DNA of 64,000 bases from Deltaproteobacteria bacterium (GTDB taxonomy: Bacteria > Desulfobacterota > GWC2-55-46 > UBA9637): contig JACRNJ010000006.1 in NCBI GenBank assembly GCA_016219285.1, forward strand, positions 4,988 to 68,987, given 5' to 3'. Under the pieces are notes generated by a model. That model had not been told where the DNA came from. It saw only the letters and a list, made by a program, of their open reading frames with translations, and ran no database searches. Below, piece by piece: positions 24,338 through 63,840 of the stretch (its first letter is position 1; each line of letters starts with the position of its first letter). Made by a program: the position numbers and the translations under genes.

Positions 24338-24384
24338 TTTATGGGCGTATTTAGAAACAACGATGAATCGGCAAACTATAAAAT
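24338..24384 (+). repeat. Copy B (partial) of the palindromic intergenic element family
   Basis: tttatgggcgtatttagaaacaacgatgaatcggcaaactataaaa matches the core of the 2238 and 63668 copies. Confidence 0.6.
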
Positions 24385-29441: not shown

Positions 29442-30988
29442 TGGTATCCCTGCGTCAGTTTTTTATAAACAAAACCTATAAAAGGATTTTTCCGGAAGAT
29501 ACCTGTAATGCCCTTTAAACATGCATATGCAGCCCTATACAATAACTTCTTCGCTGCACAAGGGGAGCGGCCTGTGATGAAAAAATCATCTTTCGCCAGG
29601 TGCTTGAGCCTTCCTGTCAGGAGATGTCCAATCCAGAGTTTAAACAGTGTCTTCTTTATGCCAAAATCAATGCCTGATGCAAGAATGTTTTTAAAGAAAT
29701 ACATGGGTCTTGAATAATAAAAAGATTCCATTTGGCTTGCCAGCACAACCAGATCCTTTTCCGGCACCGCGGAAATAGATATAGGATAAGCCCCGAAGTC
29801 TCTGTAACTGTTGAACCTCTCCCAATCGTATTTAATATTTTCTGGCACATACTGATATATAGGACTCCCTGGAAGAGGGGAACAAATAAAAACTGGAGCA
29901 AAGGTCGGATTCACTTCACACATAAGGTTATAGGTGTCTCTTATAGTAGCAACTGTGTCCAGTCTGTGATTAATCATGTTAAAGGCATAGGTCATAATAC
30001 CTGCTCTCTTTGCAAGGTCAAAGGTATTCTTTATTTCCTCATTAGTCATCTTCCTGCTTATATCTTCTCGCACTTTAGCATTTCCTGACTCCAATCCAAA
30101 TGCGATAATATAACAACCACTCTCTTGCATGGCAGAGAGAAGTTCATAATCAACAGTACCTACTTTGCCTAAGCATCGCCAGGGAAATCTTAAACCCCTC
30201 TTTTTAAACTCTTCAAACAGTTCGTAAAGCCATGCCCGCTTAGCCGTAAAAAGCTCATCATGAAACATGACCTCATCATAGCCAAATCTCTCAAACATAT
30301 ATTTGATCTCATCCACCACATTCTTTGGACTTCTCCTCCTGAAGACAGAGCCGTAAACAGCCTTATTGCAATAGGCGCAGCTGAAAGGACAGCCCCGTGA
30401 CGCCGTCAGATTCAATATTTTTTTGCCGACCTCTATCCCTTCTGATGGATATGTGTACTTTTCTATGAGATCGTTGGCAGGAAAAGGTAGAATATCCAGA
30501 TTCTCTATATAAGGTCTCGACCCTGTATGGACAATAGTCCCGTTATTCCGGTAGTAGATGCCCTGAACTTGATCCAGATTCGATCCCTTTTCAATAGCCT
30601 TGATAAGCTCAATAATGGTTACATCCCCTTCTCCGCATACGAGAACATCTGCCTCTGGACAGTCCAACATTGTCCTTTCCGGCAAGGCTGTAGCATGATG
30701 CCCTCCAACTATAATTTTAATATGGGGAAATTCTTCCTTAAGACCTTTTATATACTGCAAGGTTTGAGGTAGACCAAAGGTATAAAGGCTGAAACCGACA
30801 ACATCCGGGGAAAAGTTTTTCATATAATCAATTGAAGGATAGTTAAGTTTATTCTCCTTCGCCCCCTGATCATAGATATCCACCTCATAATTTGCTTTTC
30901 TTAATGAGGCGGCAAGGTAAAGGATGCCAAGAGGCGGGTTCTGATTAAAGTCTATGCCATTGGATTGATTGATAAGGAGTATCTTCAT
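29438..30988 (-). CDS. B12-binding (class B) radical SAM protein
   Basis: N-terminal cobalamin-binding domain followed by a radical SAM core (SRGCPFSCAYC). Confidence 0.8.
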   Translation of the reverse strand: MKILLINQSNGIDFNQNPPLGILYLAASLRKANYEVDIYDQGAKENKLNYPSIDYMKNFSPDVVGFSLYTFGLPQTLQYIKGLKEEFPHIKIIVGGHHATALPERTMLDCPEADVLVCGEGDVTIIELIKAIEKGSNLDQVQGIYYRNNGTIVHTGSRPYIENLDILPFPANDLIEKYTYPSEGIEVGKKILNLTASRGCPFSCAYCNKAVYGSVFRRRSPKNVVDEIKYMFERFGYDEVMFHDELFTAKRAWLYELFEEFKKRGLRFPWRCLGKVGTVDYELLSAMQESGCYIIAFGLESGNAKVREDISRKMTNEEIKNTFDLAKRAGIMTYAFNMINHRLDTVATIRDTYNLMCEVNPTFAPVFICSPLPGSPIYQYVPENIKYDWERFNSYRDFGAYPISISAVPEKDLVVLASQMESFYYSRPMYFFKNILASGIDFGIKKTLFKLWIGHLLTGRLKHLAKDDFFITGRSPCAAKKLLYRAAYACLKGITGIFRKNPFIGFVYKKLTQGYQ

Positions 30989-31095
30989 TTTACAGATCTT
31001 CCCTTTCTAAATTTTACACCAATCTTTTCTGGCAACCCCATAAGAACCTTCTCGGAATTCCAAAGCAGCCATATTTTTTCATTAAGCCATAGCAT

Positions 31096-32826
31096 TTAAT
31101 TTTTGGGAACAAGTTCATAACAATGGTTTAGTTTCTCTATTTTTTCTTTGGTCTCCGACTCTTTTTCTATGGACTCTTTATAATACGGTATCGCCTTCCC
31201 GTATTCACCGATATGATAATAATAATCGGCAATCAATTCACTGTGATTTAAGAGTCTCGGATAAGGATATACACAGGGTATTTTAAGCCTCTGTACCTCC
31301 GACACAAACCTCTCAAACCGTTCCAGCCTTTTCAAGTAATTGTTTTTGCCATCGCTGGATTCCCAGTAGGAAGCGCCTTTTGAGATATCTATCCTGTAAT
31401 TTTCTGGCTCCGCATATGCAGCAGTCCCCGGATGTATAAGACAGAATGCGGAACTCGGGTTTATGGCATATATATATTTTGCGTTACGTCTTATGAAGTT
31501 GATGTTTTCTTCCGCATCATCATCGGTTTCACCAGGCAGGCCAAACATAAAATTCAAGCCGCACCCGACCCCTGCCCTGTAAGAATCCCTTACAAGTCTG
31601 TCTATATCGGATGCTGCGGTAAAAATCTTTCCCACCTTTTTTAAAAGCGGTTTGGAAGTTGATTCAAGCCCATAGGCCAGGGACACACACCCGGCTTTCT
31701 TAAACTTTACCAGAAGCTCATAGGTCATTTCTTTTCTGACCACCGCCTGCCCGCCCCAGAACACATTCAGCCTGTCTCTTATAATATTGTCGCAGAGACG
31801 TTCGATCTCAGTAATATTGCCGTTAATGAGGCTGTCATGAAACTCAAAGTACGAAATATGCGGGTGCTTTTCAATCTGATAACGCATCTCGTCATACAGG
31901 GAATTTCCGCTACGAAAGCGATATCCACCCCAGAACGCTCGCTCATTACAAAAAACGCATTTATTTATACAGCCGCGGCACGATTCTATGGGACATTTAA
32001 AAGGCTCTCTGTATCTGAAAAAATTAAAATCGGTAAAGTCCGGAAATGGTAAGGTATCCAAATTCTTTATGAATGCCCTCGGCGCCACAGGAACTATAGC
32101 ATTGCCACATTTAAACGTAGCGCCCTTACATTCTACAATATCTTTTCCATCATTGACGAGTTTGACAATCTCAAGAAACGTTTCCTCGCCCTCGCCTTCC
32201 ACGACGAAATCAATACTATCGTTTTCTTTGATAATGCTTCTGCCGGTTATCCGCCCGCTTGCGCCGGCGCCCCCAAAAACCACGGTAAGAGCCGGGTTTC
32301 TCTTTTTTATCTCCCTCGCCATATAGGCGCTCATCCGATAGGAGCTGTCAAAAATAGTAAACCCGATTATACGCGCCCCGCTATTGGCTATAAGTTCTAT
32401 ATATTGTTCCAGCGCCTCTTTATTGTCGTTGATAAACGCATCCAGTGTCGAAGGGTTGTCCCAAAACCAGAATACATTATTAGACCACCCGTCGGGGTAT
32501 TGGTGTTTGTTTTTGTTATACATCTCCACATTAATATCAACCGGCATTACCTTTATACCATTTGCCCTTAGAAATGCCGTAAGGCAGGCTATTGCAAGCG
32601 GCGGGGTATCAACACCCCAGCCGGGGGCCTGCACCAGCACCACATGAGGGCTTTTGTATCTAATGGAGGAAAGATGTTTAAGATAATCGCCGGCAGGCCT
32701 TTTATAAAGAAGGCGCGTAACAACAGCTCTTACCGGCACCATCCAGCGCCTTAAAAAAGGAAATACCCCTGCAACCCAAAGTCCGGTGGTAATAACAATC
32801 CTCGCTATGTAATCAAGTAACTTCAT
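31096..32826 (-). CDS. B12-binding radical SAM protein with an N-terminal hydrophobic segment and a TPR-like C-terminus
   Basis: 576 aa with a B12-binding-like domain and a Cys cluster (CPIESCRGCINKCVFCNE). Confidence 0.7.
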   Translation of the reverse strand: MKLLDYIARIVITTGLWVAGVFPFLRRWMVPVRAVVTRLLYKRPAGDYLKHLSSIRYKSPHVVLVQAPGWGVDTPPLAIACLTAFLRANGIKVMPVDINVEMYNKNKHQYPDGWSNNVFWFWDNPSTLDAFINDNKEALEQYIELIANSGARIIGFTIFDSSYRMSAYMAREIKKRNPALTVVFGGAGASGRITGRSIIKENDSIDFVVEGEGEETFLEIVKLVNDGKDIVECKGATFKCGNAIVPVAPRAFIKNLDTLPFPDFTDFNFFRYREPFKCPIESCRGCINKCVFCNERAFWGGYRFRSGNSLYDEMRYQIEKHPHISYFEFHDSLINGNITEIERLCDNIIRDRLNVFWGGQAVVRKEMTYELLVKFKKAGCVSLAYGLESTSKPLLKKVGKIFTAASDIDRLVRDSYRAGVGCGLNFMFGLPGETDDDAEENINFIRRNAKYIYAINPSSAFCLIHPGTAAYAEPENYRIDISKGASYWESSDGKNNYLKRLERFERFVSEVQRLKIPCVYPYPRLLNHSELIADYYYHIGEYGKAIPYYKESIEKESETKEKIEKLNHCYELVPKN

Positions 32827-33947
32827 TGTTTTTTTAAAGACTTTAATATCCTCTTTGCCCTCAAGTTCGCATCAAGCAACTTAAAATTACAGTTCAACAA
32901 TTTACATGCCTTCCGGCAATCCCTTATCAGTTCCCTCTGTATCTTCGCTTTATCAGAGCTCCATATACTCTCGGGCACATCATCCTTTATGCTGCCTATT
33001 GGCTCCATGATTGAACATATTCTCACATTGCCAAACGGGTCTAAGAAAAAATTCTTCGGGCCTATATTACAGGGAAGATTTACAAATTCCGAATCATTGT
33101 GGTTTTTAAGATACACCGATATAAGGCTTAAATGTTTAAAAGAGTTATTGATAGGGTAACCCTTTTCCTTCATAGATATAATCTCATCAAATATGCCGGT
33201 TATATCAAGTGTTTCCCTGCCTGGTTTTTTATATAATTTGCCTTCAGGAAATTCTTTATGTCCGCCGGTCGCATCAAATACCGGAAATGTCCCTGCCTCC
33301 ATGAGCGGCTGAAAATTAATCCCATCAAGCCCCTCTGATACAACAAATTCCACTATCTTTGGAAGTTCTCTGATGTTTTCTTCCATGATAGTAGCACTTA
33401 TAGTAAGCCTCATCTTGCCCCTTTTGCGTAAATTCGTTATTGCCCGCATAACATCATCAAAACTTGCCTCACTGCCTCTGGTGGCATTGTGGACGTTGGG
33501 GTTCAAGCTATTAAGCGAAAGGCTCAGCGAATCGAGACCTGATGAAATTATCTTCTTCGCAAATATTTCGTCTATCAACGAGCCATTTGACACAGCGGAA
33601 GTGATTATGCCATGCGCTGATGCAAACCTTACGATGTCAACAAATCCATCCTTTAAAAAAGGCTCTCCACCTCCAAATGAAAGACTAAAAGTCCCGAGCC
33701 ATTTTTTTAGTTTTACTATAACGGCATTCCACTCATCCACGGTCAGCTCGTTTTCATCAGGCGCAGATGTCCACCTGAAACATGTTGGGCATTTGAGGTT
33801 GCATCTATAGGTTATCTCGCAGAGTATATCCACAGGTTTTAAAGGCGAGCGATTGGGTCTATGAGCGCCAAGCAAATCGTCAAATGTATACTTTACGAGG
33901 TATTTAAGCCCCAATGCTATTCTTTGCCTTGCCCTGCTGTTATACAT
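32823..33947 (-). CDS. Radical SAM protein with a SPASM-like C-terminal Cys cluster
   Basis: CEITYRCNLKCPTCF (CxxxCxxC) near the N-terminus and C-terminal Cys motifs (CSIMEP...CRKACKLLNC). Confidence 0.7.
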   Translation of the reverse strand: MYNSRARQRIALGLKYLVKYTFDDLLGAHRPNRSPLKPVDILCEITYRCNLKCPTCFRWTSAPDENELTVDEWNAVIVKLKKWLGTFSLSFGGGEPFLKDGFVDIVRFASAHGIITSAVSNGSLIDEIFAKKIISSGLDSLSLSLNSLNPNVHNATRGSEASFDDVMRAITNLRKRGKMRLTISATIMEENIRELPKIVEFVVSEGLDGINFQPLMEAGTFPVFDATGGHKEFPEGKLYKKPGRETLDITGIFDEIISMKEKGYPINNSFKHLSLISVYLKNHNDSEFVNLPCNIGPKNFFLDPFGNVRICSIMEPIGSIKDDVPESIWSSDKAKIQRELIRDCRKACKLLNCNFKLLDANLRAKRILKSLKKQ

Positions 33948-34033
33948 ATTACCCCTTACCTTTGTCCCGTCAACTCTCTATAAAAAAAATATGAATCTTT
34001 TTAAGCCTATTATTTTATTGAGAGAGCGCTGTG

Positions 34034-35116
34034 TTATTTATTATTGTTGTAAAATAACTTTTTGATATATTTAGGCGATAGTTTGTATTGTTTATGAAGA
34101 AGTTTTTTTGTATGAAAGACTTTGATTCGCTTCCGGATTTCAAAAAGGGTCGAGGCCGCCCATTTGCAAAAAACAGAATATTCTCCCAACCTTGCAATAA
34201 ATAATAATATTGAAAGCAGAGAAGATGAACCGAATTCTTGCCTGTAAAGCATAGCAGCTTCAACAGCTTTTACCGGTTCTTTTTTAAACAAACGTTCTCC
34301 CATATAACCCAATAAGTATCTTTTCATATTAGTCTCCCACGCATGATAAATACGTTTGTTTGTTTCTTCAGATAAATCTTTATCTCTTATAAAATATTCC
34401 ATGACAATCCTCCAACCGCACAACACATCATTATATAAATTCATATTTGTTGAATAAGAGTTGGGATGAAATACGAACACACCGCAAGGTTTTTTAAATA
34501 TATAAAAAGGATATGATTTAGCAATTTGCATTTCAAAATGAGCATCTAAATGTGCTTTGACATCATAGTTTGGCGTCCACATTTTTAAAACCTTGCTTCT
34601 GAACAATATAGTAGTCCATGTAGGATGGCCTTTCTCCCACATATATAAAAGTCCTTCAGGCGGATAAATTATTCCGTCTTGCCAATCTGTTAAAGTCAAG
34701 GCAATTATCTCAGCGTTTTCATTGGCAACAATTGTTGAGCCTGCGCAAAAGACAGCCTCAGGGTAATTTTCCATGTTAGTCATGGCATCCTCATAAAAAT
34801 TTGGCAGAAGGAAATCGTCGTCAGAAAGTATTGAAAAGAAAGGGGTTTGAACCTGTGACATCCCATACTCCAAATTAGCCAATCCGCCGATATTTTCAGA
34901 ATGGCAAAAATACTTGACTCTGTTATCCTGCTTTGCCAGGCTTAATACAACTTCTTTCGTTCCGTCGCCTGAGGCATTATCGTAAACACATGCATGGAGA
35001 TATGGATGGGTTTGGTTTAATACGCTCAGGATGGCGCGTCTAAGCATTTTGGGCCTTTGGTACGTAGTAATAATCGTAGTTATCTGCGGCAGGTTAGCTT
35101 CCATGATTTTCTTCAT
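34034..35116 (-). CDS. Glycosyltransferase family 2
   Basis: GT-A motifs (ITTIITTYQRPKMLRRAILSVLNQT...YDNASGDGT...SDDD). The start is taken at MKKIMEANLP; the track ORF extends upstream in frame into the flippase gene. Confidence 0.75.
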   Translation of the reverse strand: MKKIMEANLPQITTIITTYQRPKMLRRAILSVLNQTHPYLHACVYDNASGDGTKEVVLSLAKQDNRVKYFCHSENIGGLANLEYGMSQVQTPFFSILSDDDFLLPNFYEDAMTNMENYPEAVFCAGSTIVANENAEIIALTLTDWQDGIIYPPEGLLYMWEKGHPTWTTILFRSKVLKMWTPNYDVKAHLDAHFEMQIAKSYPFYIFKKPCGVFVFHPNSYSTNMNLYNDVLCGWRIVMEYFIRDKDLSEETNKRIYHAWETNMKRYLLGYMGERLFKKEPVKAVEAAMLYRQEFGSSSLLSILLFIARLGEYSVFCKWAASTLFEIRKRIKVFHTKKLLHKQYKLSPKYIKKLFYNNNK

Positions 35117-36621
35117 TTGGATACGGCTCTGTATATATGAATCTGCCTGATAATGGATTTGCGCAACCCAGGGGCAGCGAAGGCGGCGACTCCTATTGTG
35201 ATAAGACCAGCCGCAATGAGATAGAGCAGTTTCGACGGCATGGAAACTACTTCTGGTTGCAAATACCAAAAGACCCAGACGATAAGAACCGCTGCAGAGA
35301 GCGGTAGGCCGAGGTCCGTGCCATACCAGCGCCATTTTTCACCGGGCAGCAAACGGCGGTGTATGAAGTGCATGCCGATAATTACGTAACCAACATTCAG
35401 CGCAACCCATATCCATGCCGCCCCGATGGCTCCGTAGCGCGGGGTTACCCAAAGGATGGCCGGCACCACCACAGCAACCGCCACAATATTCATCCACACG
35501 GAAAAACCGGTCCAACCGTATGCAAGTATGAGCATGTAAGGAATGTGCGTTAAATCGTTGAGCATGGCGCCTAATGCCAGCAAAACCAATAATGGAGCAA
35601 CATTATCCGAAAGCCCCGCGTTGCCTGTCCATAAAACAAGCAGGTTTTTCCCGAAAAACATCATCATGAACGCGGCCGGCGCCACGAACGCGCTGATAAG
35701 CTGCGCGCCCTGATGGTAGGCGCTGATAAGAGCCGACGTATCTCCCCGTGTAACCAACTCGGTAAAGCGGGGATAATATGCTTGCGTAATCGGGCTGGTT
35801 ATTTGGTACAGCGCACCGGCCACAGTCCATGCGAGCATGTAATAGCCGAACATCTCCAAAGTTAACAGACGGGAAAGTATCACCTTATCTATCTGCGTCA
35901 ACAACAACGCCAACAAGGTCGTTGCCATCATCCCGCTTGCGAATCGCCAAACGCTTCGCAGTTGAAACAATGAAAACTTGGCCGAATGTTCCGAAGGCGG
36001 CAAGCGCCGATACACGGCAAAGACGAAAACTGTAACAGTGACAACCGATGCGGAGCACTGCCAGAGAAAAAACGCCTTAATAGTCGGCGATATCCACACC
36101 AATACAATAACCGCCCCTGCCCAGCGCAAAGTGGCGAGTCCGGACACGGCGACATTTAACAATACTTGTTTTTGCAAACCCGCTATCGCGCCATGGTAGA
36201 GACTTTCGACGAAACGCAGAGCGACTACGAATCCCATGATTGATATTGCCTCTGCGACCGTTTCAACGGGCAGTTTTCCCGAGCGTAACCAGTTAGCACC
36301 GAGCCATGTTGACAGGAGCCAAACTCCAACCCCGATCAAAATAGCGATTGCGAAGCAGATCACTTCCAGACTGCGCAGCAAATCACGTATGGATTTATCC
36401 GTATGAGCACCCGCCGTATAGCGCGCCATCTCCCGGTTGAGCGTCGGCGTCATGCCCATATCCAGAAGCGCAAGCCATGCCTGTAACATGATAAACACGC
36501 CTATCAGCCCATACGCCTCCATGCCCAGATATTTGATGTAAACGGGCGCAAACGCAATCCCCATCAGGGCTGTCCAGCCATGACCAAGATAGTTGGCGAA
36601 AATGTTTTTCTTTAGCGACAT
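35113..36621 (-). CDS. wzx: Polysaccharide/O-antigen flippase Wzx (PST/MOP family, multi-pass membrane)
   Basis: 502 aa, highly hydrophobic, with the PST-family N-terminus MSLKKNIFANYLGHGWTAL. This is the most GC-rich gene in the cluster. Confidence 0.75.
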   Translation of the reverse strand: MSLKKNIFANYLGHGWTALMGIAFAPVYIKYLGMEAYGLIGVFIMLQAWLALLDMGMTPTLNREMARYTAGAHTDKSIRDLLRSLEVICFAIAILIGVGVWLLSTWLGANWLRSGKLPVETVAEAISIMGFVVALRFVESLYHGAIAGLQKQVLLNVAVSGLATLRWAGAVIVLVWISPTIKAFFLWQCSASVVTVTVFVFAVYRRLPPSEHSAKFSLFQLRSVWRFASGMMATTLLALLLTQIDKVILSRLLTLEMFGYYMLAWTVAGALYQITSPITQAYYPRFTELVTRGDTSALISAYHQGAQLISAFVAPAAFMMMFFGKNLLVLWTGNAGLSDNVAPLLVLLALGAMLNDLTHIPYMLILAYGWTGFSVWMNIVAVAVVVPAILWVTPRYGAIGAAWIWVALNVGYVIIGMHFIHRRLLPGEKWRWYGTDLGLPLSAAVLIVWVFWYLQPEVVSMPSKLLYLIAAGLITIGVAAFAAPGLRKSIIRQIHIYRAVSK

Positions 36622-36626
36622 TCAAA
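36550..36626. repeat. Direct repeat copy 1 (~76 bp): the 5' end of wzx including its start codon
   Basis: It is near-identical (3-4 mismatches) to 37515-37591. Confidence 0.85.
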
Positions 36627-37064
36627 TTTCCTGCAATATCTCTTGATGTTCCCAGCAATTTCAAAGAGTTTTCCCGTCCATAATAGAACTTCTTCAAATT
36701 TCTTCACATAGTCTTCTTCAAGATACTCGTGAACCAGCTCATTTCTCAAGTCTTTCATCGCCCTCAACAAATCAACACTCTCAACAATGCCTTTCTTTTC
36801 AGCACGATTTGCCACATCGAGCGTTGTGCCTGGTTCTTCAAGCTCAACAAAATCAATATTTCTCAAGACCTTCATTACAATCATATCAACCGCCCTGCCG
36901 AATCTGCCGCACAAAGTCTCAAATGCCTCAAGCTCGGCCTCGTCATAATTTCCCTTTATCCCAATTATTCTGCATTTCTGGTAAGACCTTTTCAGCCAAG
37001 CTAACGACTGATCCAAATCTCGTAAACTTTTGATGAGGATTTCAAGATAATCTTTTTGTGTCAT
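36612..37064 (-). CDS. HEPN-domain protein (HI0074-like nucleotidyltransferase substrate-binding protein), putative toxin
   Basis: 150 aa with an Rx4H HEPN motif (LRNELVHEY). Its stop overlaps the wzx start, and it is paired with the upstream MNT gene. Confidence 0.7.
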   Translation of the reverse strand: MTQKDYLEILIKSLRDLDQSLAWLKRSYQKCRIIGIKGNYDEAELEAFETLCGRFGRAVDMIVMKVLRNIDFVELEEPGTTLDVANRAEKKGIVESVDLLRAMKDLRNELVHEYLEEDYVKKFEEVLLWTGKLFEIAGNIKRYCRKFECR

Positions 37065-37378
37065 AACTTTACTCCTGTCTGAATGGCCATTTTCAGAAAA
37101 GGAGAATCTATTCCCTCTCTTACAATGATATCTATCTTTTGTTCACCTAATGCCTTATACATGTTTATCTTTATAAATCGCCTCTGAATCGGTAATATCC
37201 TCTTGGAAATTACGAGGATATCCAAATCGCCTCCCTTTTTATTCAAATCCGCCCTTGAGCCGAAAATATAGATTCCGGCATCCTTGTCATATTCATATAC
37301 AGCGTCCTTTATCTTTTTAATCTCGTCTGGTTTTAACCTGACAACCTGTGGCGATATGGAAGTATTATTTCCCATCAC
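37061..37378 (-). CDS. Minimal nucleotidyltransferase (MNT, pol-beta superfamily), putative antitoxin
   Basis: GSRAD...GGDLDILV motif. It has a 4-nt overlap with the HEPN gene. Confidence 0.75.
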   Translation of the reverse strand: MMGNNTSISPQVVRLKPDEIKKIKDAVYEYDKDAGIYIFGSRADLNKKGGDLDILVISKRILPIQRRFIKINMYKALGEQKIDIIVREGIDSPFLKMAIQTGVKL

Positions 37379-37514
37379 TTAATTCCTTAATCAAACGACT
37401 GGCAGGCCGATTCCTAATTTCTTTTCCCATAAAGTTGTCCCCTTCATCCCTTCTTTGCCTCTATCAGCATATACTTCCCCATATAAATATTATCGTAAAA
37501 CATAATAAGGGAAT

Positions 37515-37591
37515 AAACGCAATCCCCATCAGGGCTGTCCAGCCCTGACCAAGATAGTTCGCGAAGATGTTTTTCTTTAGCGACATTCAAA
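37515..37591. repeat. Direct repeat copy 2 (~76 bp): a duplicated wzx 5' end encoding only a truncated 40-aa peptide
   Basis: aaacgcaatccccatcagggctgtccagccctgaccaagatagttcgcgaagatgtttttctttagcgacattcaaa. The minus strand reads MSLKKNIFANYLGQGWTALMGIAFIP... then a stop. Confidence 0.85.
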
Positions 37592-37610
37592 AATCCAAGG
37601 GGCGCGCCTC

Positions 37611-38408
37611 TTAGCGAACCCGTTTCAAATACCCGTCCGAGGCCGCGGTTATGAGGAGTTTATGCTCCATTACCTTATCAATCTCAAATTCGGGATGAGT
37701 TTTCAGGTACTCCCACACCGCCGTCTTCGGATTATTTCCTTTGCCCCACGGCCGGTTGGCGCAAAAACCCTCGGGCAAGTCTTCAATGCCCGTATCCCAT
37801 ACAACGCAATAGCTTCCCACGGACGTCAACGGCGCGTAAGCTTTCAACTCGGCCAAGACATGGTTGTGCGTGTGGTCCGAATCTAAAGAGACGAGGATTT
37901 TCTTGTAACTTTTTGCCATTGTCTTCACCCGCTCAATAACGTCCGGAGCAACGGAAGAGCCTTCTATCATCTCGATAAGATGCGCCATCGGATGCGCTTC
38001 AATCGCCTCGCGATTGTGCGGCCGAATCTCGATGTCAAGACCAAGCACCCGCTTTTTCGACGCCTTGGGGTCAAGGGTTTTGCCGGCCTGAACCGCCTCG
38101 CAATAATCCAACAACGCCAACATGGAAGCGCTCATGATTAAAGAACCGCCGTGCGCTATTCCTGTTTCAATTACCAAATCAGGCTTAATATTCCATATTA
38201 ATTCCTGCATGGCATAAATATCTTGAGGAACCTGCATTACCGGGCGGCCAAGCCATGAGAAATTATGCGCGTAATTATACGGAATAATTCCCTTTATCCA
38301 TAGCTGAGTTAATGCATATAAATCCTTATCCTGTCCCATTTGCTCGATATTAGATGCAACTTCTTGCATAAACTTCCTGTCGGCTTCATTCATATACAAC
38401 TCCTCCAA
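37611..38408 (-). CDS. Class I SAM-dependent methyltransferase, cephalosporin-hydroxylase (CmcI)/rhamnosyl O-methyltransferase-like
   Basis: 265 aa. The IETGIAHGGS motif and overall similarity match the CmcI family (PF04989-like). The gene is GC-rich. Confidence 0.6.
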   Translation of the reverse strand: MEELYMNEADRKFMQEVASNIEQMGQDKDLYALTQLWIKGIIPYNYAHNFSWLGRPVMQVPQDIYAMQELIWNIKPDLVIETGIAHGGSLIMSASMLALLDYCEAVQAGKTLDPKASKKRVLGLDIEIRPHNREAIEAHPMAHLIEMIEGSSVAPDVIERVKTMAKSYKKILVSLDSDHTHNHVLAELKAYAPLTSVGSYCVVWDTGIEDLPEGFCANRPWGKGNNPKTAVWEYLKTHPEFEIDKVMEHKLLITAASDGYLKRVR

Positions 38409-38543
38409 AATTTTTATATATTTTCACATGCTTACAACAAGCTTAAGGCGATTGAAATATAAAGAGCCAATTGTTTTTATAGCACTTGCTCCTCTCGTTT
38501 GCGTTTTATGTAATTAACAAAAACCTAAACTCACTCACATTTT

Positions 38544-40166
38544 TCACACAGGATTCAGATTGAAATATTCAGCATATTCTTTCCAAACAATATCTCTTTT
38601 TATTAGTTCATTAAATTTATCCTTATTGAGCTTTATTAGTTCAGGATTCTCATTCATAGCTTCTTGTGCCCTCGCGAGATAATAATACGCAAAAGCATGA
38701 TTTGCGTATCTTCTTATAACGTCTTGAAAACTTTTTGCAGCTATCTGATAATCACCAATTTTCATTCTGTAGTTATTTACAAAGTTAACATCTAAATTCA
38801 TCAAGTATGTCTTCCTTGCAACATCCTCTGCCGTATACTCTGGTGTGTTTATAGCGTCCATCTCACCAATCCTTAGATTTTTTATATATCCTTTCTCTAT
38901 ACATATTCTATATAATTCACTACCCCTAGATGGCGTGGCAATACTAAATCCAGCCCAATCAAGTTCAACATCCTTGATGAACCTTATTGTTTCTTTCCTG
39001 TGTTCATCTCTTTCTCCAGGCATACCAGACACAAAATAGCCTTGAATCCAGAACCCATATTTTCTAAGACTTTGAACAACCGGTCTTACCATTTCAAGCC
39101 TTAATGGTTTTTTTATAATATCATAAAGCACATATGGCGAACCGGATTCAATGGCAAGACATACTGTATGCATCCCTGCCTTTTCCATTAATTCGGTCAT
39201 CTCTTCATCAACAAACGCGACTGTCAGACCATTTGGACACTCAATTCTAAGATTAAATTTAGCCAGTTCTCTGAACAATTGCTTTGCTCTATTTTTGTTT
39301 AAGAGTAGTTGGTCATCGTAAAACGTTAAAATATTCATGCCGTAATTCGACACAAGAAACTCAACATGCTCTATAATTTTTTCCACACTGGCATAACGCA
39401 TGCTTTTGTCGTCATCGGAAGAACGCATACAGAAGGTGCATTTAAAAGGGCAGCCGCGAGATGAAACTAGAAAAAACTGCTTTGGGTTTTCTATCTCGCC
39501 GGCAAATGGCGAAAAAGACTCTTGCATTGTCGAGTATTCGGAAATATTGACGAGGCTGTAATCAATATTTATCACTTCGTCTAAGTTATTAAGTAGTGAT
39601 CTCTCGGGAGTCTTTCCTGCCTTAATAGATTTTTTAGTAACCCAAGACCGGTCATTTTCTAAAAATTCCGGCATGTTTTCACTGTTAATCAATCTTAAAA
39701 ACGGAAGCTCGCCTTCACCAAAACAGATGCCGTCTATATTATCCTGCTCTTCAATTATAACCCTATACGACGGTGTTGTAACGGCCCCGCCTAATACGAT
39801 AATGGCATCGCGATTATACTCTTTTATCGCGTTGGTGATATCACTGACATATTTATAAGAATCATCGAACATCAGTGATAGCCCCACGATATCCGGCTTG
39901 CACTTCAACAACTTTTGATTTATAGTATCAAGATAACTTTCCTCGTCATTATCGTTGCAGTCGAATATTTTTATCTCTACTTTATCTTTGCCGTGCACTT
40001 TTAAATAAGTAGAGAGAGAAAGAACACCGTACGGAAAAGCTTTAAAACTTCTTATTTTGGAATGTTTTGCTTCCACATTTTTTACTAAATATGGCAGTAC
40101 AATTATTAAGATATTCAGACATTTAGTATTCATTTTAATCGCCTTCATATTTTTTGAAGTTTTCAC
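38544..40166 (-). CDS. B12-binding radical SAM protein
   Basis: 540 aa with an N-terminal B12-binding-like domain and SSRGCPFKCTFC. Confidence 0.8.
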   Translation of the reverse strand: MKTSKNMKAIKMNTKCLNILIIVLPYLVKNVEAKHSKIRSFKAFPYGVLSLSTYLKVHGKDKVEIKIFDCNDNDEESYLDTINQKLLKCKPDIVGLSLMFDDSYKYVSDITNAIKEYNRDAIIVLGGAVTTPSYRVIIEEQDNIDGICFGEGELPFLRLINSENMPEFLENDRSWVTKKSIKAGKTPERSLLNNLDEVINIDYSLVNISEYSTMQESFSPFAGEIENPKQFFLVSSRGCPFKCTFCMRSSDDDKSMRYASVEKIIEHVEFLVSNYGMNILTFYDDQLLLNKNRAKQLFRELAKFNLRIECPNGLTVAFVDEEMTELMEKAGMHTVCLAIESGSPYVLYDIIKKPLRLEMVRPVVQSLRKYGFWIQGYFVSGMPGERDEHRKETIRFIKDVELDWAGFSIATPSRGSELYRICIEKGYIKNLRIGEMDAINTPEYTAEDVARKTYLMNLDVNFVNNYRMKIGDYQIAAKSFQDVIRRYANHAFAYYYLARAQEAMNENPELIKLNKDKFNELIKRDIVWKEYAEYFNLNPV

Positions 40167-41773
40167 TCCTTATTCGAGGAGCATCTGTCTTTTAGGAAAT
40201 CTTTTATTTCTGTCACATTATGGCTTTTCTGAAATGATGAGATGGAAATCAACGGCATATCACTGCCAAACTTACCTTTTACATAACGTTCAACTATTTT
40301 GTAATCCGAACCTAAAAAGGAGTATGTTACGCTCCAGAATGGAATCCTGCCGATCTTGACATTATACCCAGGCAATGAGATAGTTTTATCATCCAACTGA
40401 AAACCGGCCTCAATATCCATATTAATATACCCTAAACAATTCTTCCAACTATAAGCGGATAATTTCTTCATTAGAGTTATAAAGTAATAATGCCGAGTTG
40501 TTCCCACCAATACCCATGGATGCAAATCAATTATTCTCATTCTCTCAAATAAAACCTCGTCACGCCCCACCGCTTGATTTATTTTCTCCATATATTGATT
40601 AGCCAATTCATAATCCACTTTGTTTAATCTTAGTTGTACATCTGTAGTACCTCCAATCTCAGGTTTAAACCAGTCGAATCTATCGCGAGCAAACGATTCC
40701 GGAAGATACCCGTTGTCAAAACAGTAATCATATAATTCAGTGCCGGGATAAGGAGAATAAAAAAAACAATTCACGCTATCCGGTTTCGCCTTCTCCACAA
40801 ACTCTAATGTCTGTTTGTAATCGTCTTCATCCTGCGTGGGAATTCCAAACATCAGATTAATAACACAATTTAAACCAAACTCATGACACACCTGCACGGC
40901 CCTGTAAGAATCTTCTACGGTTTGCTTTTTGTTCATAAACTTCAAAAGCTTAGGAGAGGCTGTTTCTATGCCGAAATTTATTGTTTCTACACCCAATTTA
41001 ACAAGTTCGGCCGCAACATCGGCGTTAAAAGAACTCGCTCTGCCTGTAACCTGACTGCTAAATACTATGCTTTTCCCGGATTGCTCGATAGTTTTCCGGA
41101 ATCGTTCTAATTTTTTTGAATCACTGGCAAACAGGTCGTCTAAAAAATGGAAACTCCGTACTCCATATTTATCGTGCAATTCCAGTACATATTCTATAAG
41201 GCTGTCAAAGGGAAAAGATAGAAACTTTTTGCTTCCGGAATGGCAAAAAGTACATTTATACGGGCATCCCATGGCGGTCAATACACTGGCCATTTCCGTT
41301 ACTTTCATTCTTTCAATCTGGCTTTCGGAATGGAAGTGCCGGTTATATAAATGTTTATTCGGGTGTTGTTTGCCGCATATAATCTCTCCATTAAGATTCT
41401 TATATTCATCAAGAATGTTTTCCAATACCCCCATCCCGTCACCCACGACGACTGCGTCAAAAAAACCGGTCTGAATAATTTCATCCGGCATTAAAGTCGG
41501 GTGAATACCGCCGGCTATAATTTTTGCGCTTACCGTATCCCTTATAGCTCCGGCTAAAGACAAAGCCTGATTCCTCTCCCAAGATTTAAATGAAAACCCA
41601 AGTAAATCAGGTTTGTATCGCTCGACAAACAGTTTAAGCTGAGAACCATCTCTGTCTTGCGGTGAAGCAAAGCAGATATCAACTTCCCATCCGTGTTCGC
41701 GAGCAAGAGAACATAACATCGAGGCAGCGAGAGAGGAATTTTCTGTAAATATTACCATTAATAATTTCTTCAT
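40163..41773 (-). CDS. B12-binding radical SAM protein
   Basis: 536 aa with an N-terminal B12-binding-like domain and AMGCPYKCTFC. It overlaps the previous radical SAM gene by 4 nt. Confidence 0.8.
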   Translation of the reverse strand: MKKLLMVIFTENSSLAASMLCSLAREHGWEVDICFASPQDRDGSQLKLFVERYKPDLLGFSFKSWERNQALSLAGAIRDTVSAKIIAGGIHPTLMPDEIIQTGFFDAVVVGDGMGVLENILDEYKNLNGEIICGKQHPNKHLYNRHFHSESQIERMKVTEMASVLTAMGCPYKCTFCHSGSKKFLSFPFDSLIEYVLELHDKYGVRSFHFLDDLFASDSKKLERFRKTIEQSGKSIVFSSQVTGRASSFNADVAAELVKLGVETINFGIETASPKLLKFMNKKQTVEDSYRAVQVCHEFGLNCVINLMFGIPTQDEDDYKQTLEFVEKAKPDSVNCFFYSPYPGTELYDYCFDNGYLPESFARDRFDWFKPEIGGTTDVQLRLNKVDYELANQYMEKINQAVGRDEVLFERMRIIDLHPWVLVGTTRHYYFITLMKKLSAYSWKNCLGYINMDIEAGFQLDDKTISLPGYNVKIGRIPFWSVTYSFLGSDYKIVERYVKGKFGSDMPLISISSFQKSHNVTEIKDFLKDRCSSNKE

Positions 41774-41874
41774 ATAACTACCCCTTAATTTCTGATTTTA
41801 GATCATGAACACGCAAGAATTGAATACTAACTTCTCGAAAATACACTCCTATCATTGCAATGTCCCGCCGTAAT

Positions 41875-43071
41875 TTACAGATTAATTCTTTCTCTCGGAA
41901 TCGCATATATAACAGCGCCGGTTCCAAGCCAACTATGCACTCGAAAATAGTAAATGTAGTTATCAAGATGAGACATTATTTCATCGGGAAGTTTCCACAA
42001 TCCGTCCCTATTATGATACGCGGTTACCGTAAGTATCGGACGATTTGTCATAATTGTCTCCAATCCCCCGCTAATAGCGCTACGCTCCCAACCTTCAATG
42101 TGAATCTTGATGAATGTTGCGGGAATCGACATATCATCAAGGGCTTTAACGTTAACATCTGTTTGCCCTAATTCACTGAATTGAGACGCATATCCTAATC
42201 CGCGATAAAAAGGTTTATGATTCTCCATGGATCCAACAGCGCACTCCAGCAAATGGATTTTTCCTTTTTCCCCTGGCATGTTTTTCTCCAAACAATTACG
42301 AAGCTTACTGAAATTTTCACCGTCAGGTTCGATAGCATAAATTTCTTTAAACTTGTTTTTCACTGCCTCCATGAATAGAATAATTACTTCTCCATGATGC
42401 GCGCCAATATCAACGAACACTTCATTGTCGCGTAATGCCCGCAACACTTGCGGTATGAAATATCGATCAGATGTCGTTACCGGCGCATCATCGAAGAACC
42501 ATTCTTCTCGCAAACTATGCCACGCAATAAACTGTAAATGATGGGCGCGAGAAATGTCATCTTCCCACCGGGATAAAACCGATTCAATGCCGCAGATATC
42601 TCCTTCGCTCAGTGTGCCAGAGTACCATCCATTGCTTAAAGGGTGGAGGCCACGATAAGCCTCGGCAATATCATAGAACGGCACCACGTCACGCCAACCT
42701 TGCTCCCTTAAAGGCGTAGTCACCTGGGAAAAAGGTACTAGTGCAACGCAAATAGCCAGTAGTGAAGATTCCCTTATATGAAGAGGTACATCTTGAATGC
42801 CGAAAATATCGACTCCCGCCCAGAAGGGATCTTTTCTATACAAATCAGGATATTTATCCACCACACATAAAAACGGGATGCAAAGCCGCTCAAGATATTC
42901 CTTAGCCAGTTTTCCAAAATTACTAGCGCCATACAATACCAGTGGCTTATCTACCTTACGCGCCGTAAAGAGAACCGGCCTCTTTGCGATAACGCGCAAC
43001 AACCGGCACGCCGTCTTTAGGTCAGGGGCTTTCTCGTATTTCACCGGAGCAATTGTATATTCTTCGCCCAT
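41875..43071 (-). CDS. FkbM-family methyltransferase
   Basis: 398 aa with an FkbM domain (VFVDIGAHHGEVIILF...EPDGENFSKL). Confidence 0.7.
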   Translation of the reverse strand: MGEEYTIAPVKYEKAPDLKTACRLLRVIAKRPVLFTARKVDKPLVLYGASNFGKLAKEYLERLCIPFLCVVDKYPDLYRKDPFWAGVDIFGIQDVPLHIRESSLLAICVALVPFSQVTTPLREQGWRDVVPFYDIAEAYRGLHPLSNGWYSGTLSEGDICGIESVLSRWEDDISRAHHLQFIAWHSLREEWFFDDAPVTTSDRYFIPQVLRALRDNEVFVDIGAHHGEVIILFMEAVKNKFKEIYAIEPDGENFSKLRNCLEKNMPGEKGKIHLLECAVGSMENHKPFYRGLGYASQFSELGQTDVNVKALDDMSIPATFIKIHIEGWERSAISGGLETIMTNRPILTVTAYHNRDGLWKLPDEIMSHLDNYIYYFRVHSWLGTGAVIYAIPRERINL

Positions 43072-44330
43072 AATCTCAGTTTCAAATTATCCGGAAAATG
43101 CCCGCTGAAATGAAACACCGTTCCTTTGCTTTTTTCAAACATCCCGTAACCAAGACGCTTGCCCTTATCCAGGTTGATACTGCCGTCTTCGGCAAAAATA
43201 GTTTTATCGCGTTGGCAGGAGAGAAACCACTCAGCCGGATCGGCGCCGAAAATTTCCGAAAAAACAATCTTTCTTTTTTCCATGGACATTACTGATTGAT
43301 AGTGCCCGTTGAGCGCGGCTTCCATCTTTTCCGCGGAAAATCTTTCTCTAACCGATTCGGATGCCTGTCTTCCCATCTTTTGCCTGTCCGCGGGGTTTTC
43401 GGATAACCACTTAATCGCCTCCGCGAATTCATCGGGCGAGCGGACAATTAATCCTGTCTTGCGGTCATCTACAATCCTGCGCTCCGCCGGATTACCCAGC
43501 ACGACTGGCACAATCCCCATGGCCATCGCTTCAAGGAGCGCGTTTTCGGTCGTCCCGTAGTGTTCCGGATTCAGAAGATACGCAAGCACGTTAATCGAGG
43601 CAAGCTCGGAAACTATATCCGTCGCGTACCCTCTGAAATCCAGCATTCCCGTCCTGCCTAAACTATCGCATTGTTGGTTCAGAATATCTTGATTCGCCGC
43701 ATCCCCGATCATTTTGACTCTGAACCCGGGTATATCCACCGCTGTCAAATAATCAACATAATCCGGATGAAGTTTTGCAAAATTCAGACTGCCGATATAC
43801 CCCGCTGAAATTTCTTTATTTGGTTTTTCAACAGGTTCGGGCAACCCGGAAAATCCTCCGCTACTAAATACTACGTCTAACCTGTCTCCGAGTTCGGGCA
43901 TCAAGCCTATTACCTCCTTGCTTTCAAACGAACAGGGGGACGTGAATAAAAATCTGTGCGAAGCCGACATCAACCCTTGAGGTATTATCGGGTTATGTAT
44001 TCCGGAAACATGGCTCCACGTAAGAAGCCGGATAGGCGGAATGGCCAAGGTGCAGAGCTGTTTAATCGTTTCCGGATGGTTCCACCACTCCAACTGAACG
44101 ATGTCCGAATCTCTTAATAATTTCTCCGTGCCATCCTTGCCCGGCCGTACAATTACCTCGCCTCCGCATTCGCGAATCCTGTCTACGAATTGCCCCTTTT
44201 CTGGTTCTTCCAGACAAACGATAAGGTGCCGCGCTCCTGAGCCCGATACGCTCGCCCGGGCAACGAGCCCGCTCAAAGCCTTGCCGACTCCGCCTCCGAC
44301 GTGAGCGGTTATATGGAGTACCTTAATCAA
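43041..44330 (-). CDS. Glycosyltransferase, GT4-like (GT-B)
   Basis: 429 aa. The C-terminal GT-B donor-binding region (EAMAMGIVPVVLGN...TGLIV) supports the call. Confidence 0.7.
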   Translation of the reverse strand: MIKVLHITAHVGGGVGKALSGLVARASVSGSGARHLIVCLEEPEKGQFVDRIRECGGEVIVRPGKDGTEKLLRDSDIVQLEWWNHPETIKQLCTLAIPPIRLLTWSHVSGIHNPIIPQGLMSASHRFLFTSPCSFESKEVIGLMPELGDRLDVVFSSGGFSGLPEPVEKPNKEISAGYIGSLNFAKLHPDYVDYLTAVDIPGFRVKMIGDAANQDILNQQCDSLGRTGMLDFRGYATDIVSELASINVLAYLLNPEHYGTTENALLEAMAMGIVPVVLGNPAERRIVDDRKTGLIVRSPDEFAEAIKWLSENPADRQKMGRQASESVRERFSAEKMEAALNGHYQSVMSMEKRKIVFSEIFGADPAEWFLSCQRDKTIFAEDGSINLDKGKRLGYGMFEKSKGTVFHFSGHFPDNLKLRLWAKNIQLLR

Positions 44331-62037: not shown

Positions 62038-62063
62038 CATGACTATAGGCAGCGACATAAATT

Positions 62064-62132
62064 TGTAGTCTGCCGATTTATCGGCGATTTTAAAATACGC
62101 CCATGGGGCACCAAACAGAAGGTTGGGTCGGG
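62064..62132 (-). repeat. Copy C (inverted orientation) of the palindromic intergenic element family
   Basis: tgtagtctgccgatttatcggcgattttaaaatacgcccatggggc...gggcaaactacag is the reverse complement of the 63668 copy. Confidence 0.65.
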
Positions 62133-63663: not shown

Positions 63664-63667
63664 AGTA

Positions 63668-63840
63668 GATTGCCCATTTATGGGCGTATTTAAAAACGCT
63701 GATAAATCGGCAAACTACAGCGCCTTGCCCTTGACAAACTATCTCCTTTGCCAAAGGCAAAAGAGTTTTGTGTTTTGCTTCGGCAAAACACATAATTTGT
63801 AAAGGGCTTGCATCTTGGAAATTTTTGAGCGTGAACTGCA
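63668..63840 (+). repeat. Copy D of the palindromic intergenic element family, with a ~75-bp internal insertion
   Basis: tgcccatttatgggcgtatttaaaaacgctgataaatcggcaaactacagcgccttgcc ... gcttgcatcttggaaatttttgagcgtgaact matches 2238-2328 across both ends. Confidence 0.7.

Follow-up and report, generated by a model that had tools for sequence, protein, structure and literature searches.

How a toxin-antitoxin (TA) gene pair came to lie between two copies of the start of a flippase gene, inside a cluster of glycan genes, is the question raised by this locus. In a BLAST self-comparison of the window (the whole 64,000-nucleotide stretch of DNA that was analysed) one pair of direct repeats was recovered with E = 6e-29, the only repeat of such strength across the 64 kb. 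The preliminary description had put this duplication at about 76 bp with 3-4 differences, flanking the cassette; alignment of the two copies gives 77 nt, 74 of which are identical, at a spacing of 965, and the repeat stretches to 82 nt at 94% identity. Both copies carry TTTGA followed by the ATG and first 24 codons of wzx. Between them are 888 bp of low-GC DNA, made up of 70 nt of filler and an 823-bp cassette with an MNT and a HEPN gene. The intact wzx, HEPN, MNT, the remnant of the wzx start and the adjoining CmcI-type methyltransferase gene (MT) all lie on the minus strand (Table 1).

Table 1. Coordinates of the features at the wzx start, numbered from the first nucleotide of the window.
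Feature	Position	Strand	Details
wzx-type (MOP/Polysacc_synt) flippase gene	35113..36621	-	intact, 502 aa; Pfam Polysacc_synt 61.7 bits
Downstream repeat copy	36550..36626	-	regenerated 5' end of functional wzx; ATT/GCC/CAT at the 3 variable sites
HEPN (HepT-like) toxin gene	36612..37064	-	150 aa; Rx4H at R107-H112
TTTGA microhomology at the cassette/wzx junction	36622..36626	-	8/10 if extended: GGAAATTTGA vs GGATTTTTGA
Mobile MNT-HEPN cassette	36622..37444	-	823 bp; ~65 nt 5' leader and both genes, HEPN lacking its native last 3-4 codons
MNT antitoxin gene	37061..37378	-	104 aa from ATG 37375, or 105 aa from GTG 37378
Filler DNA	37445..37514	-	70 nt, between remnant and cassette
Remnant ORF	37464..37586	-	40 aa; 24 wzx residues and 16 hydrophobic junction-encoded residues
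Upstream repeat copy	37515..37591	-	wzx start remnant; 5 nt leader, ATG at 37586, 24 codons
CmcI-type (rhamnosyl) O-methyltransferase gene (MT)	37611..38408	-	Pfam RMNT_CmcI 316.6 bits

The gene headed by the downstream copy encodes a multi-pass flippase of the MOP type, whose Polysacc_synt score is well above the cut-off of 28.2 bits and which aligns colinearly over its full length with two 502-aa homologues (P0022 and P0023, 86% amino acid identity); the NCBIfam Wzx models score it below threshold. Its neighbours are glycosyltransferases, sugar-modifying enzymes and methyltransferases, as in a glycan gene cluster. On gene order, the MT gene (which gene callers start at 38393) is the ancestral upstream neighbour of wzx. 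The 40-aa ORF opened by the upstream copy matches no Pfam family at a meaningful E-value and is probably a by-product.

Comparison with relatives shows the site without the insert. The uninterrupted MT-wzx site is present in four relatives (L105, L106, L108 and L107) whose wzx genes are 87-90% identical in nucleotides to that of the window and differ from one another by 8-13%. In L105, L106 and L108 the MT stop is followed by 24 nt and then by the wzx ATG, and the upstream repeat copy of the window lies at this same native distance from the MT stop; the upstream copy therefore represents the ancestral wzx start. MT-wzx adjacency is also kept in distant relatives (L006, L008 and L005; 45-52% amino acid identity). 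The proposal in the preliminary description that a cassette had been inserted and the wzx 5' end regenerated is thus upheld by the empty sites in relatives.

The insert is foreign to its surroundings. The cassette has a GC content of about 38%, the flanks one of about 52%. A copy from another metagenome, in a different context (L020/L021), matches it at 97.4% identity, whereas the MT gene next to the window cassette is only 86% identical to its L020 counterpart. Further copies are 93% (L103) and 86-88% (L104, L023 and L024) identical, each again in a different context, so that five or more contexts are known. Since near-identical copies sit in different contexts, the cassette is, on these comparisons, horizontally mobile as well as foreign to its flanks. 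The upstream border of homology varies among copies (37444, 37434, 37384, 37379 and 37353), and the other copies compared (L020, L103, L104, L023 and L024) lack a flank derived from wzx. Searches with the cassette of PLSDB plasmids, INPHARED phages and IMG/VR gave no match. The 70-nt filler likewise has no match elsewhere in the window, in 104 fetched loci or in plasmids, phages and viral contigs; one of its reading frames stops at 37444-37446, exactly where the L020 homology begins, and it is presumably donor sequence from upstream of the cassette.

The two cassette genes are predicted to form a divergent MntA/HepT-like, type VII TA pair. MNT scores above the Pfam cut-offs for NTP_transf_2 (34 bits against 21) and Polbeta (30.6 against 26.9) and has the catalytic motif GSx(9-11)[DE]x[DE] as G39-S40 ... 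D50-L-D52 of the translation; against the NCBIfam MntA_antitoxin equivalog it reaches 23.9 bits, below the threshold of 60. HEPN falls just under the Pfam HepT-like cut-off (21.3 bits against 23.5) and is also sub-threshold in NCBIfam. Its Rx4H motif (R107-NELV-H112) is invariant in 15 homologues, as is the adjoining Tyr114 (RNELVHEY), which is compatible with, though not evidence for, the AMPylation mechanism described for such systems (PMC7641770). PDB sequence searches with the HEPN profile and with MNT gave no match, and therefore a fold search was needed for HEPN. That search, run with the AF2 model (pLDDT 92), placed HEPN toxins from HEPN-MNT systems first among its PDB matches (8yuf, 8xdj, 8xeh, 7ae6-9, 7bxo and 5yep; TM 0.72, prob 1.0). 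MNT lies upstream and overlaps HEPN by a 4-nt ATGA (37061-37064), a bicistronic arrangement whose order is kept in L020, L103, L104 and L109.

Known type VII examples are SO_3165/3166 of Shewanella oneidensis, HEPN/MNT of Aphanizomenon flos-aquae and HEPN-MNT of Legionella pneumophila, from which the mechanism is taken (PMC7641770, PMC11586414). The window pair resembles these in its small upstream MNT with a GS...DxD motif, in the 4-nt overlap, in the Rx4H with adjacent invariant Tyr and in a predicted HEPN fold that matches the solved toxins. It differs in that HEPN has only 11-20% sequence identity to those toxins, and in that its native C-terminus has been swapped for three codons of wzx leader. 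By analogy with the family, AMPylation by MNT would neutralise the HEPN RNase, and the pair would act as an addiction or abortive-infection module. The locus adds a sequence-divergent branch to the MNT/HEPN family.

The junctions bear on how insert and gene were joined. On the wzx side (AAATTTGA/ATG) the junction shows the TTTGA microhomology, which occurs both in the native leader of wzx (GGATTTTTGAATG) and at the native 3' end of HEPN (AAATTTGAGACTATAAAATGA in L020, L103, L024 and L104); the HEPN/wzx junction reads GCAGGAAATTTGAATGTCGC. This junction falls inside the last HEPN codons, so that the window toxin ends in RKFECR, its last three codons and stop coming from the duplicated wzx leader and start. 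Among 14 complete close relatives of HEPN (at least 84% amino acid identity), 11 end in RKFETI(K/E) and the others in RKFDTN..., RKFEDIG or RKLESIA; neither an RKFECR end nor a donor-type HEPN-wzx junction occurs in any of the 14. Compared to all of these relatives HEPN is cut short at its end, and so the window state is the derived one. The remnant/filler boundary, GCGTTT/ATTCCC, is a non-homologous join. No terminal inverted repeats (TIR) were found around the insert, no attC-like structure or palindrome follows HEPN, which is fused straight to wzx with no sequence between, and the 136 nt upstream show no significant structure (z = -0.5). The only ORFs of the cassette are the two TA genes; no transposase, integrase or relaxase gene is present in the insert or within 10 kb on either side, where all genes are for glycan biosynthesis.

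The three differences between the repeat copies were compared to the states seen in relatives. The 72 coding nucleotides of the upstream copy are identical to L106, and its ATC, GCG and CAG are the states of L105, L106 and L107. Of the states in the downstream copy, ATT and GCC are found in the window only; CAT also occurs in L108, which makes the CAT/CAG site a shared polymorphism. All the derived states are therefore in the functional copy and none in the remnant. All three differences are at third codon positions (p = 1/27 under neutral decay), although with only three substitutions separating the copies there is little statistical power for tests of allelic origin. On this pattern, the differences look allelic and not like decay of the remnant. 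Window-specific substitutions are equally dense in the first 72 nt and in the rest of wzx (2.8%), with no step at the repeat border (+72), and no phylogenetic discordance or recombination breakpoint was detectable across the cassette: over the upstream 219 nt the window matches L106 at 94.5% and L108 at 94.1%, and identity to the relatives in the first 219 nt of wzx is 93-95%. The 5' end of wzx is itself unusually conserved in nucleotides across lineages, at 95-100% compared to about 88% for the gene. The preliminary description had called the insertion recent; the insertion stands, and its recency needs qualifying, as the copies already differ by 3.9%.

A TA cassette has clearly been inserted into the wzx start, probably without a recombinase, which is a fairly ordinary event in itself. 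The cassette and 70 nt of presumed donor DNA now follow codon 24 of wzx within the glycan operon, and the first 77 bp of the gene (5 nt of leader and 24 codons) are present twice. The original start of wzx is stranded upstream, and the downstream copy, which is fused to the end of HEPN, opens the intact flippase gene. The most likely form of such illegitimate recombination would be the homology-facilitated one, or a template switch, with DNA of a related strain; one junction would have formed where the 3' end of HEPN and the leader of wzx share TTTGA, and the other by non-homologous joining at GCGTTT/ATTCCC. The functional wzx 5' end would probably derive from the incoming allele, with the remnant being the resident one. 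Taken whole, with the predicted type VII identity of the pair, this explanation appears somewhat more probable than improbable. The donor arrangement (a HEPN-wzx junction lacking the remnant, or the filler in another context) was not found in the loci examined.

Alternatively, a single event in situ, by a staggered break or an MMBIR-like template switch, could have inserted the 888 bp and duplicated the 77 bp, with the differences arising later. This is the most parsimonious account in number of events, and the microhomology at one junction, the lack of a donor with a HEPN-wzx junction among the loci seen and the lack of phylogenetic discordance across the cassette are consistent with it. However, the presumably neutral remnant is unchanged and the constrained functional copy has two or three changes, all at third positions; to explain the CAT/CAG site, a parallel or reverse mutation has to be assumed; and if the event were old, a rough estimate gives about 3-4 changes to be expected in the remnant. 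It is a possible reading, though a doubtful one. That the insert is instead the relic of a site-specific or Campbell-type element, which used the wzx 5' end as its att or homology site, brought in a substitute 5' end (as SXT does at prfC, or islands at tRNA genes) and was reduced to the TA pair by later deletions, would fit direct repeats that contain a gene end, a functional copy that carries "foreign" variants, a 5' end conserved enough to suit portable homology and TA arrays that hold repeated gene-5' fragments (L020 and L035). It seems improbable, since the insert is only 0.9 kb with no integrase or relaxase in or near it, other cassette copies have no wzx fragment and no substitution-density step is seen at +72; furthermore, the left border of the repeat is at a junction inside HEPN coding sequence, which would call for an extra, precisely placed deletion. 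With no recombinase and no wzx flank on other copies, the insert was not classed as an integrase-mediated element with gene-end regeneration.

The direct repeats had been interpreted in the preliminary description as a possible target duplication, and distant HEPN family members are indeed found in arrays in which conserved repeats lie between small cassettes, as might be expected of a transposon or of an integron gene cassette at a secondary site. In the transposition sense this interpretation is not supported: a 77-bp duplication far exceeds known target-site duplications, the 10 kb on either side contain neither a transposase nor an integrase gene, and both TIR and an attC-like palindrome behind HEPN are lacking. 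Copies of the cassette differ in their ends, one of which falls inside coding sequence where the last HEPN codons are cut, the other junction carries 70 nt of filler, and the window does not contain the 35-nt array repeat. Such an origin is very improbable. Nor could the insert be assigned to either class, having only two TA ORFs, variable ends and a long duplication in the one case and, in the other, a HEPN fused to wzx with no integrase among the neighbouring genes. The TA arrangement could conversely be ancestral, with the empty sites arising by precise deletion between the 77-bp repeats; such a deletion poses no mechanistic difficulty and would leave wzx clean. We give this scant credence, because empty sites occur in four lineages 8-13% apart and in distant relatives (45-52% amino acid identity), the cassette has a foreign GC content and a 97.4% match to L020 against 86% for the flanks, and the truncated HEPN end marks the window state as derived. 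Finally, the source is a metagenome-assembled genome, in which an assembly artefact might join two strain variants. Three independent Logan assemblies from different runs (SRR12113407, SRR12113393 and SRR12113397) each span both copies at 100% identity, and therefore the structure is not an artefact of assembly; the 3 differing sites also let k-mers resolve the copies, and an artefact is hardly credible.

Homology-facilitated illegitimate recombination, or microhomology-mediated insertion, is known from natural transformation in Acinetobacter and Streptococcus pneumoniae. Context is given in a review (PMC6382021). The window is like these cases in being joined at a microhomology, with adjoining homology to the resident gene, filler and no recombinase, but it shows a 77-bp duplication where the classic events usually delete recipient DNA. 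Some integrating elements restore the end of the gene that they target, among them SXT/R391 at the prfC 5' end, tRNA-targeting islands and tycheposon arrays. As with such elements, the window repeats contain a gene end, the gene is intact with an end supplied by the element, and stranded gene-end remnants can accumulate in arrays; unlike them, the window has no integrase or conserved core site, is 0.9 kb long and has a junction inside toxin coding sequence. The TA cassettes of chromosomal integrons build up in arrays, which they are thought to stabilise; like them, the window cassette is small, mobile and same-strand, but it lacks attC, attI/intI and a conserved cassette boundary.

Related TA arrays contain fragments of other gene starts. 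The L020 array has two copies of the first ~27 codons of one gene, which share 85% identity and of whose 12 differences 9 fall at third positions, and a GT2 N-terminal fragment; in L035 a 59-aa UDP-sugar dehydrogenase N-terminal fragment lies inside the TA array. The repeated L020 fragments, which we tentatively take to be DegT-like from the DegT N-terminal motif and a weak tblastn match, have no match in Pfam and are too short for such a call. A literature search with the 35-nt array repeat string returned no paper. As a qualitative observation, glycan genes were seen repeatedly near members of this HEPN family.

A more speculative reading, to which we attach little probability, is that in these uncultivated bacteria small TA cassettes may spread through glycan clusters without a recombinase, the conserved first ~25 codons of a gene serving as portable homology. 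Recombination between the repeats may then free a circle of ~1 kb, consisting of the cassette and one gene-5' copy, and one crossover at the conserved start of the gene may be enough for the circle to enter any strain again. With every such entry the resident 5' end may be stranded, so that TA arrays come to be punctuated by gene-5' fragments, as in L020 and L035. More generally, this locus and the related ones hint that TA arrays land repeatedly in surface-polysaccharide clusters, which bears on the co-evolution of variable glycan loci and defence genes under phage pressure. Filled and empty sites side by side show that a selfish or defensive TA pair can enter a packed operon, with a 24-nt gap, without destroying its target. 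Current understanding is not challenged by these findings. Exchange between the 77-bp repeats could precisely delete the cassette and restore wzx, but the toxin would select against its loss.

For the flippase, the insertion brings a new ribosome-binding context. HEPN ends at a stop codon (36614-36612) that is found 5 nt beyond the start codon of wzx (36621-36619); the two ORFs thus share 10 nt, and the junction puts AGGA 7 nt upstream of the wzx ATG. The overlap of toxin stop and flippase start noted in the preliminary description is thus correct, while co-transcription and translational coupling of HEPN and wzx, through this overlap and the AGGA as a new Shine-Dalgarno, are plausible as judged from sequence. 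Wzx would be transcribed both by operon read-through and from the cassette. It had also been suggested that the downstream operon might be under TA autoregulation. The cassette is part of a long operon of co-oriented genes, and upstream of it terminator signals do not exceed background, which makes read-through from upstream promoters at least as likely. Neither promoter nor terminator signals around the insert rise above background; a weak hairpin-plus-T-run is present at the remnant/filler junction (37527-37509), in a region where the count of such sites is below the shuffle mean.

The CmcI-type O-methyltransferase gene (MT), the sugar flippase gene wzx, the MNT and HEPN genes and both repeat copies are all encoded on the minus strand, within a long co-oriented glycan-biosynthesis cluster (~23.7-53.4 kb of the window) that also contains a MarR-like regulator, UDP-sugar dehydrogenase, epimerases, dTDP-sugar isomerase, glycosyltransferases, several B12-binding radical-SAM enzymes and methyltransferases. 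BLAST self-comparison of the 64-kb window aligned the two copies of the wzx 5' end over 77 nt with 74 matches, at a spacing of 965 (E = 6e-29); bar a dispersed REP-like element elsewhere, it returned no second repeat of comparable strength. An ORF of 40 aa opens in the upstream copy B, and the HEPN/wzx and MNT/HEPN ORFs overlap by 10 and 4 nt respectively. The preliminary description, which placed the cassette between two wzx-5' copies with a 40-aa peptide and a HEPN/wzx overlap, was correct in every detail. The source, a metagenome-assembled genome, is labelled Deltaproteobacteria bacterium at NCBI (HEPN, MBI5326876.1; wzx, MBI5326875.1), and the region is chromosomal, with RNase P RNA and three tRNAs present. 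The entire structure was reproduced at 100% identity in three Logan assemblies from different runs, each spanning both copies; it is not an artefact.

Features of the wzx locus and its surroundings (window coordinates)
Feature	Position	Strand	Remarks
MT gene, CmcI-type O-methyltransferase	38408/38393-37611	-	
Spacer between MT and copy B		-	24 nt
Repeat copy B	37591-37515	-	TTTGA, ATG at 37586, 24 wzx codons
Filler	37514-37445	-	70 nt, unrelated sequence
MNT gene	37378/37375-37061	-	
HEPN gene	37064-36612	-	
Repeat copy A	36626-36550	-	start of intact wzx
wzx	36621-35113	-	intact, 502 aa
Palindrome in wzx 5' repeat	37529-37548; 36564-36583		9-bp arms
B12-binding radical-SAM genes	29438-30988; 31096-32826; 38544-40166; 40163-41773		
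SPASM-type radical-SAM genes	32823-33947; 44327-45352		
REP-like element	2239-2303; 24338-24378; 62063-62104 (-); 63665-63728		~45-65 nt

For comparison, contigs were read that carry the wzx genes closest to that of the window (86% aa, 87-90% nt identity). Three of these loci (L105, L106 and L108) show the same 24-nt spacer between the MT stop codon and an uninterrupted wzx; a fourth, L107, has the same leader and wzx with a different gene upstream. Furthermore, MT-wzx adjacency is kept in the far more distant genomes L006, L008 and L005 (45-52% aa identity). Copy B therefore lies exactly at the ancestral wzx start, and copy A is a regenerated start. The suggested search for a single wzx start without the toxin-antitoxin (TA) pair thus found it in four relatives, establishing insertion with regeneration of the wzx 5' end. 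The insert is compositionally foreign, at ~37-42% GC against ~50-54% for MT and wzx.

A copy in L020/L021, from two JGI metagenomes, matches the cassette (window 37444-36622, 823 bp) at 97.4% identity, whereas the CmcI fragment adjoining that copy shares only 86% with the window MT. Identity is 93% in L103 and 86-88% in L104, L023 and L024. Every copy lies in a different context, as does P0148, a relative of at least 90% aa identity in L109, and the cassette is mobile but has no defined ends. Searches of plasmid, phage and viral collections gave no match to it. How far homology extends upstream varies among copies. The downstream limit is always window 36622, because the other DNA copies that reach this point (L020/L021, L103, L104, L023 and L024) continue into the native HEPN terminus (GAGACTATAAAATGA, in some a variant of it). 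A native C-terminus is also present in all 14 complete close protein relatives (at least 84% aa), as RKFETI(K/E) in 11 and otherwise as RKFDTN..., RKFEDIG or RKLESIA; only the window protein ends RKFECR, reading into the wzx start. In L103 (826-1182; Logan SRR15505517) the HEPN gene has a premature TAA directly after the HEYLEED motif (118 aa) and MNT is intact, an example of toxin decay within the same cassette lineage.

The cassette meets wzx at the pentamer TTTGA, which the HEPN 3' end (GGAAATTTGA) shares with the native wzx leader (GGATTTTTGA); these two sequences agree at 8/10 positions. The second junction, GCGTTT/ATTCCC, leads into the filler, for which there was no match in the window, 104 comparison loci, plasmids, phages or viral contigs. 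The insert has neither terminal inverted repeats nor an attC-like structure, and no recombinase gene is found in it or within 10 kb on each side; each of transposition, integron recombination and integrase-mediated integration thereby lacks a defining feature. The target duplication originally proposed finds no support; illegitimate or homology-facilitated recombination takes its place.

The differences between the two copies bear on how the duplication arose. They are ATC/ATT, GCG/GCC and CAG/CAT (B/A), and each falls on a third codon position, for which random placement gives a probability of 1/27. Polarisation against the four relatives assigns the common state to the remnant, copy B, at every site, and its 72 coding nt equal those of L106. 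The functional copy A has derived states, of which ATT and GCC are found only in the window and CAT (His14) is common to the closest relative, L108, and protein P0023. Window-specific substitutions number 2 in the first 72 nt of wzx and 43 in its whole 1509 (2.8%), an equal density, and none in the remnant. A neutral remnant that is unchanged, beside a constrained copy with 2-3 changes and one site that would need homoplasy, fits a two-allele origin better than a one-step duplication and insertion in situ followed by decay, on evidence that is thin, resting on three sites. The resident wzx start would then have been stranded as the remnant, and the incoming start would have arrived together with the cassette. 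We rank such recombination with related DNA, homology-facilitated or illegitimate, as the first candidate, with about an even chance of being right. In-situ duplication comes second and is rather unlikely; in its favour over allelic import, no phylogenetic discordance was found across the insert, and no donor arrangement among close HEPN relatives.

The wzx 5' repeat contains a palindrome (TCAGGGCTG GA CAGCCCTGA) whose arms pair perfectly in the remnant, L105 and L106; the CAT variant disrupts it in the functional copy and L108. Nucleotide conservation is 95-100% over the first ~100 nt of wzx and ~88% over the remaining gene.

Stranded gene-5' fragments recur, as individual examples, in glycan-locus TA arrays of separate lineages, and are what repeated recombination of the inferred kind would leave; they also leave room for a recombinase-free cassette mechanism, though at low probability. 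In L020 (1-7590; JGI 3300076124), and also L021, the nearest cassette copy ends an array of at least 7 TA pairs (MNT/HepT x3, PIN, DUF7718/DUF5647, RelB/ParE and UPF0175/DUF3368) interleaved with glycan-gene debris. This includes the first ~27 codons of one gene twice (1022-1107 and 2969-3054; 85% identical, 9/12 differences at third positions), as allelic copies, a CmcI 3' fragment (6565-6659) immediately beyond the HEPN stop, and, from about 6725, an N-terminal piece of a GT2 gene joined to one half of a methyltransferase. A 20-nt motif, CAATGTCATTGAATTAAGGG, is present four times, in both orientations, and its 4171/4351 pair resembles the inverted termini of a miniature transposable element (MITE). 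A TA array in L035 (1763-1942 and 6089-6463) encloses 59 N-terminal codons of a UDP-sugar dehydrogenase gene, adjoining a MarR-like regulator similar in kind to the one at the head of the glycan cluster in the window. A Wza-like exporter and GDP-mannose dehydratase (L040, 324-4629, with a TA array), or a NusG paralogue and HTH_24 regulator (L109, 5735-8453), are found just upstream of other MNT-HEPN pairs, in L109 likewise with a TA array. As a descriptive observation, the family is repeatedly seen at or inside polysaccharide gene clusters (also L024 1038-1223, L089 2010-2120 and L046 5710-6258).

More distant homologues of the window HEPN (40-55% aa) occur in arrays of small same-strand cassettes at 13 loci, including L028 780-2890, L034/L035/L037 600-7650, L039/L040 and L062 800-4490. 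Between the cassettes lies a direct repeat of ~35 nt that is conserved and non-palindromic (core ACGCTAAAATGCAAGACCTGACCCC followed by CAAAA). All 47 copies have the orientation of the genes and end 5-30 nt 5' of the next start codon, and many come after AACTNAA heptamer runs. An attC-like site was ruled out and a literature string search did not find the repeat, which could be an undescribed cassette-array repeat.

MNT scores above Pfam cut-offs and has the GS...DLD motif. HEPN has a Pfam HepT-like score slightly under the cut-off, and a sequence search of the PDB gave no match to it; R107-x4-H112 and Tyr114 are invariant in its family alignment. The AlphaFold model built on this alignment (pLDDT 92) best matches solved HEPN toxins of HEPN-MNT systems, from Legionella (8yuf/8xdj/8xeh; TM 0.72), then Aphanizomenon (7ae6-9) and Shewanella (7bxo/5yep). 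The pair adds a divergent member to the type VII MNT/HEPN family, and its genomic setting is instructive yet unsurprising. In model systems MNT AMPylates HEPN (PMC7641770, PMC11586414); by analogy the window MNT is predicted to do so near the active site, thereby blocking RNase activity. The last helix of the model spans H123-147 and the three altered C-terminal residues lie beyond its end, so that they are unlikely to matter. In contrast to the synonymous pattern of wzx, codon changes between the cassette and L020 5718-6540 are nonsynonymous in 15 cases and synonymous in 3 (MNT 4:0, HEPN 11:3), 7 of them within HEPN residues 9-25 (first helix), which suggests relaxed or diversifying selection, notably on the toxin N-terminal helix.

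The intact wzx is colinear with its homologues. The new junction puts AGGA 7 nt 5' of its ATG, a spot at which only GGA occurs in the native leader, and the HEPN stop lies 5 nt within wzx, making translational coupling to HEPN plausible. No promoter or terminator signal above background was detected around the insert. The cassette occupies the middle of a co-oriented operon; TA autoregulation, once suggested to govern everything downstream, is judged unlikely to be its sole control.

The glycan cluster is compositionally mosaic over 28329-46285, with MT and wzx at ~52% GC and their neighbours at 31-45%. This region is unusually rich in radical-SAM genes (four B12-binding, with two of SPASM type in the same cluster), which, beside several methyltransferases, suggests heavily C- and O-methylated sugars. 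The REP-like element is intergenic (consensus TTTATGGGCGTATTTAAAAACGCCGATAAATCGGCAAACTACA) and carries an internal hairpin (CGCCGAT AAATCGGC).
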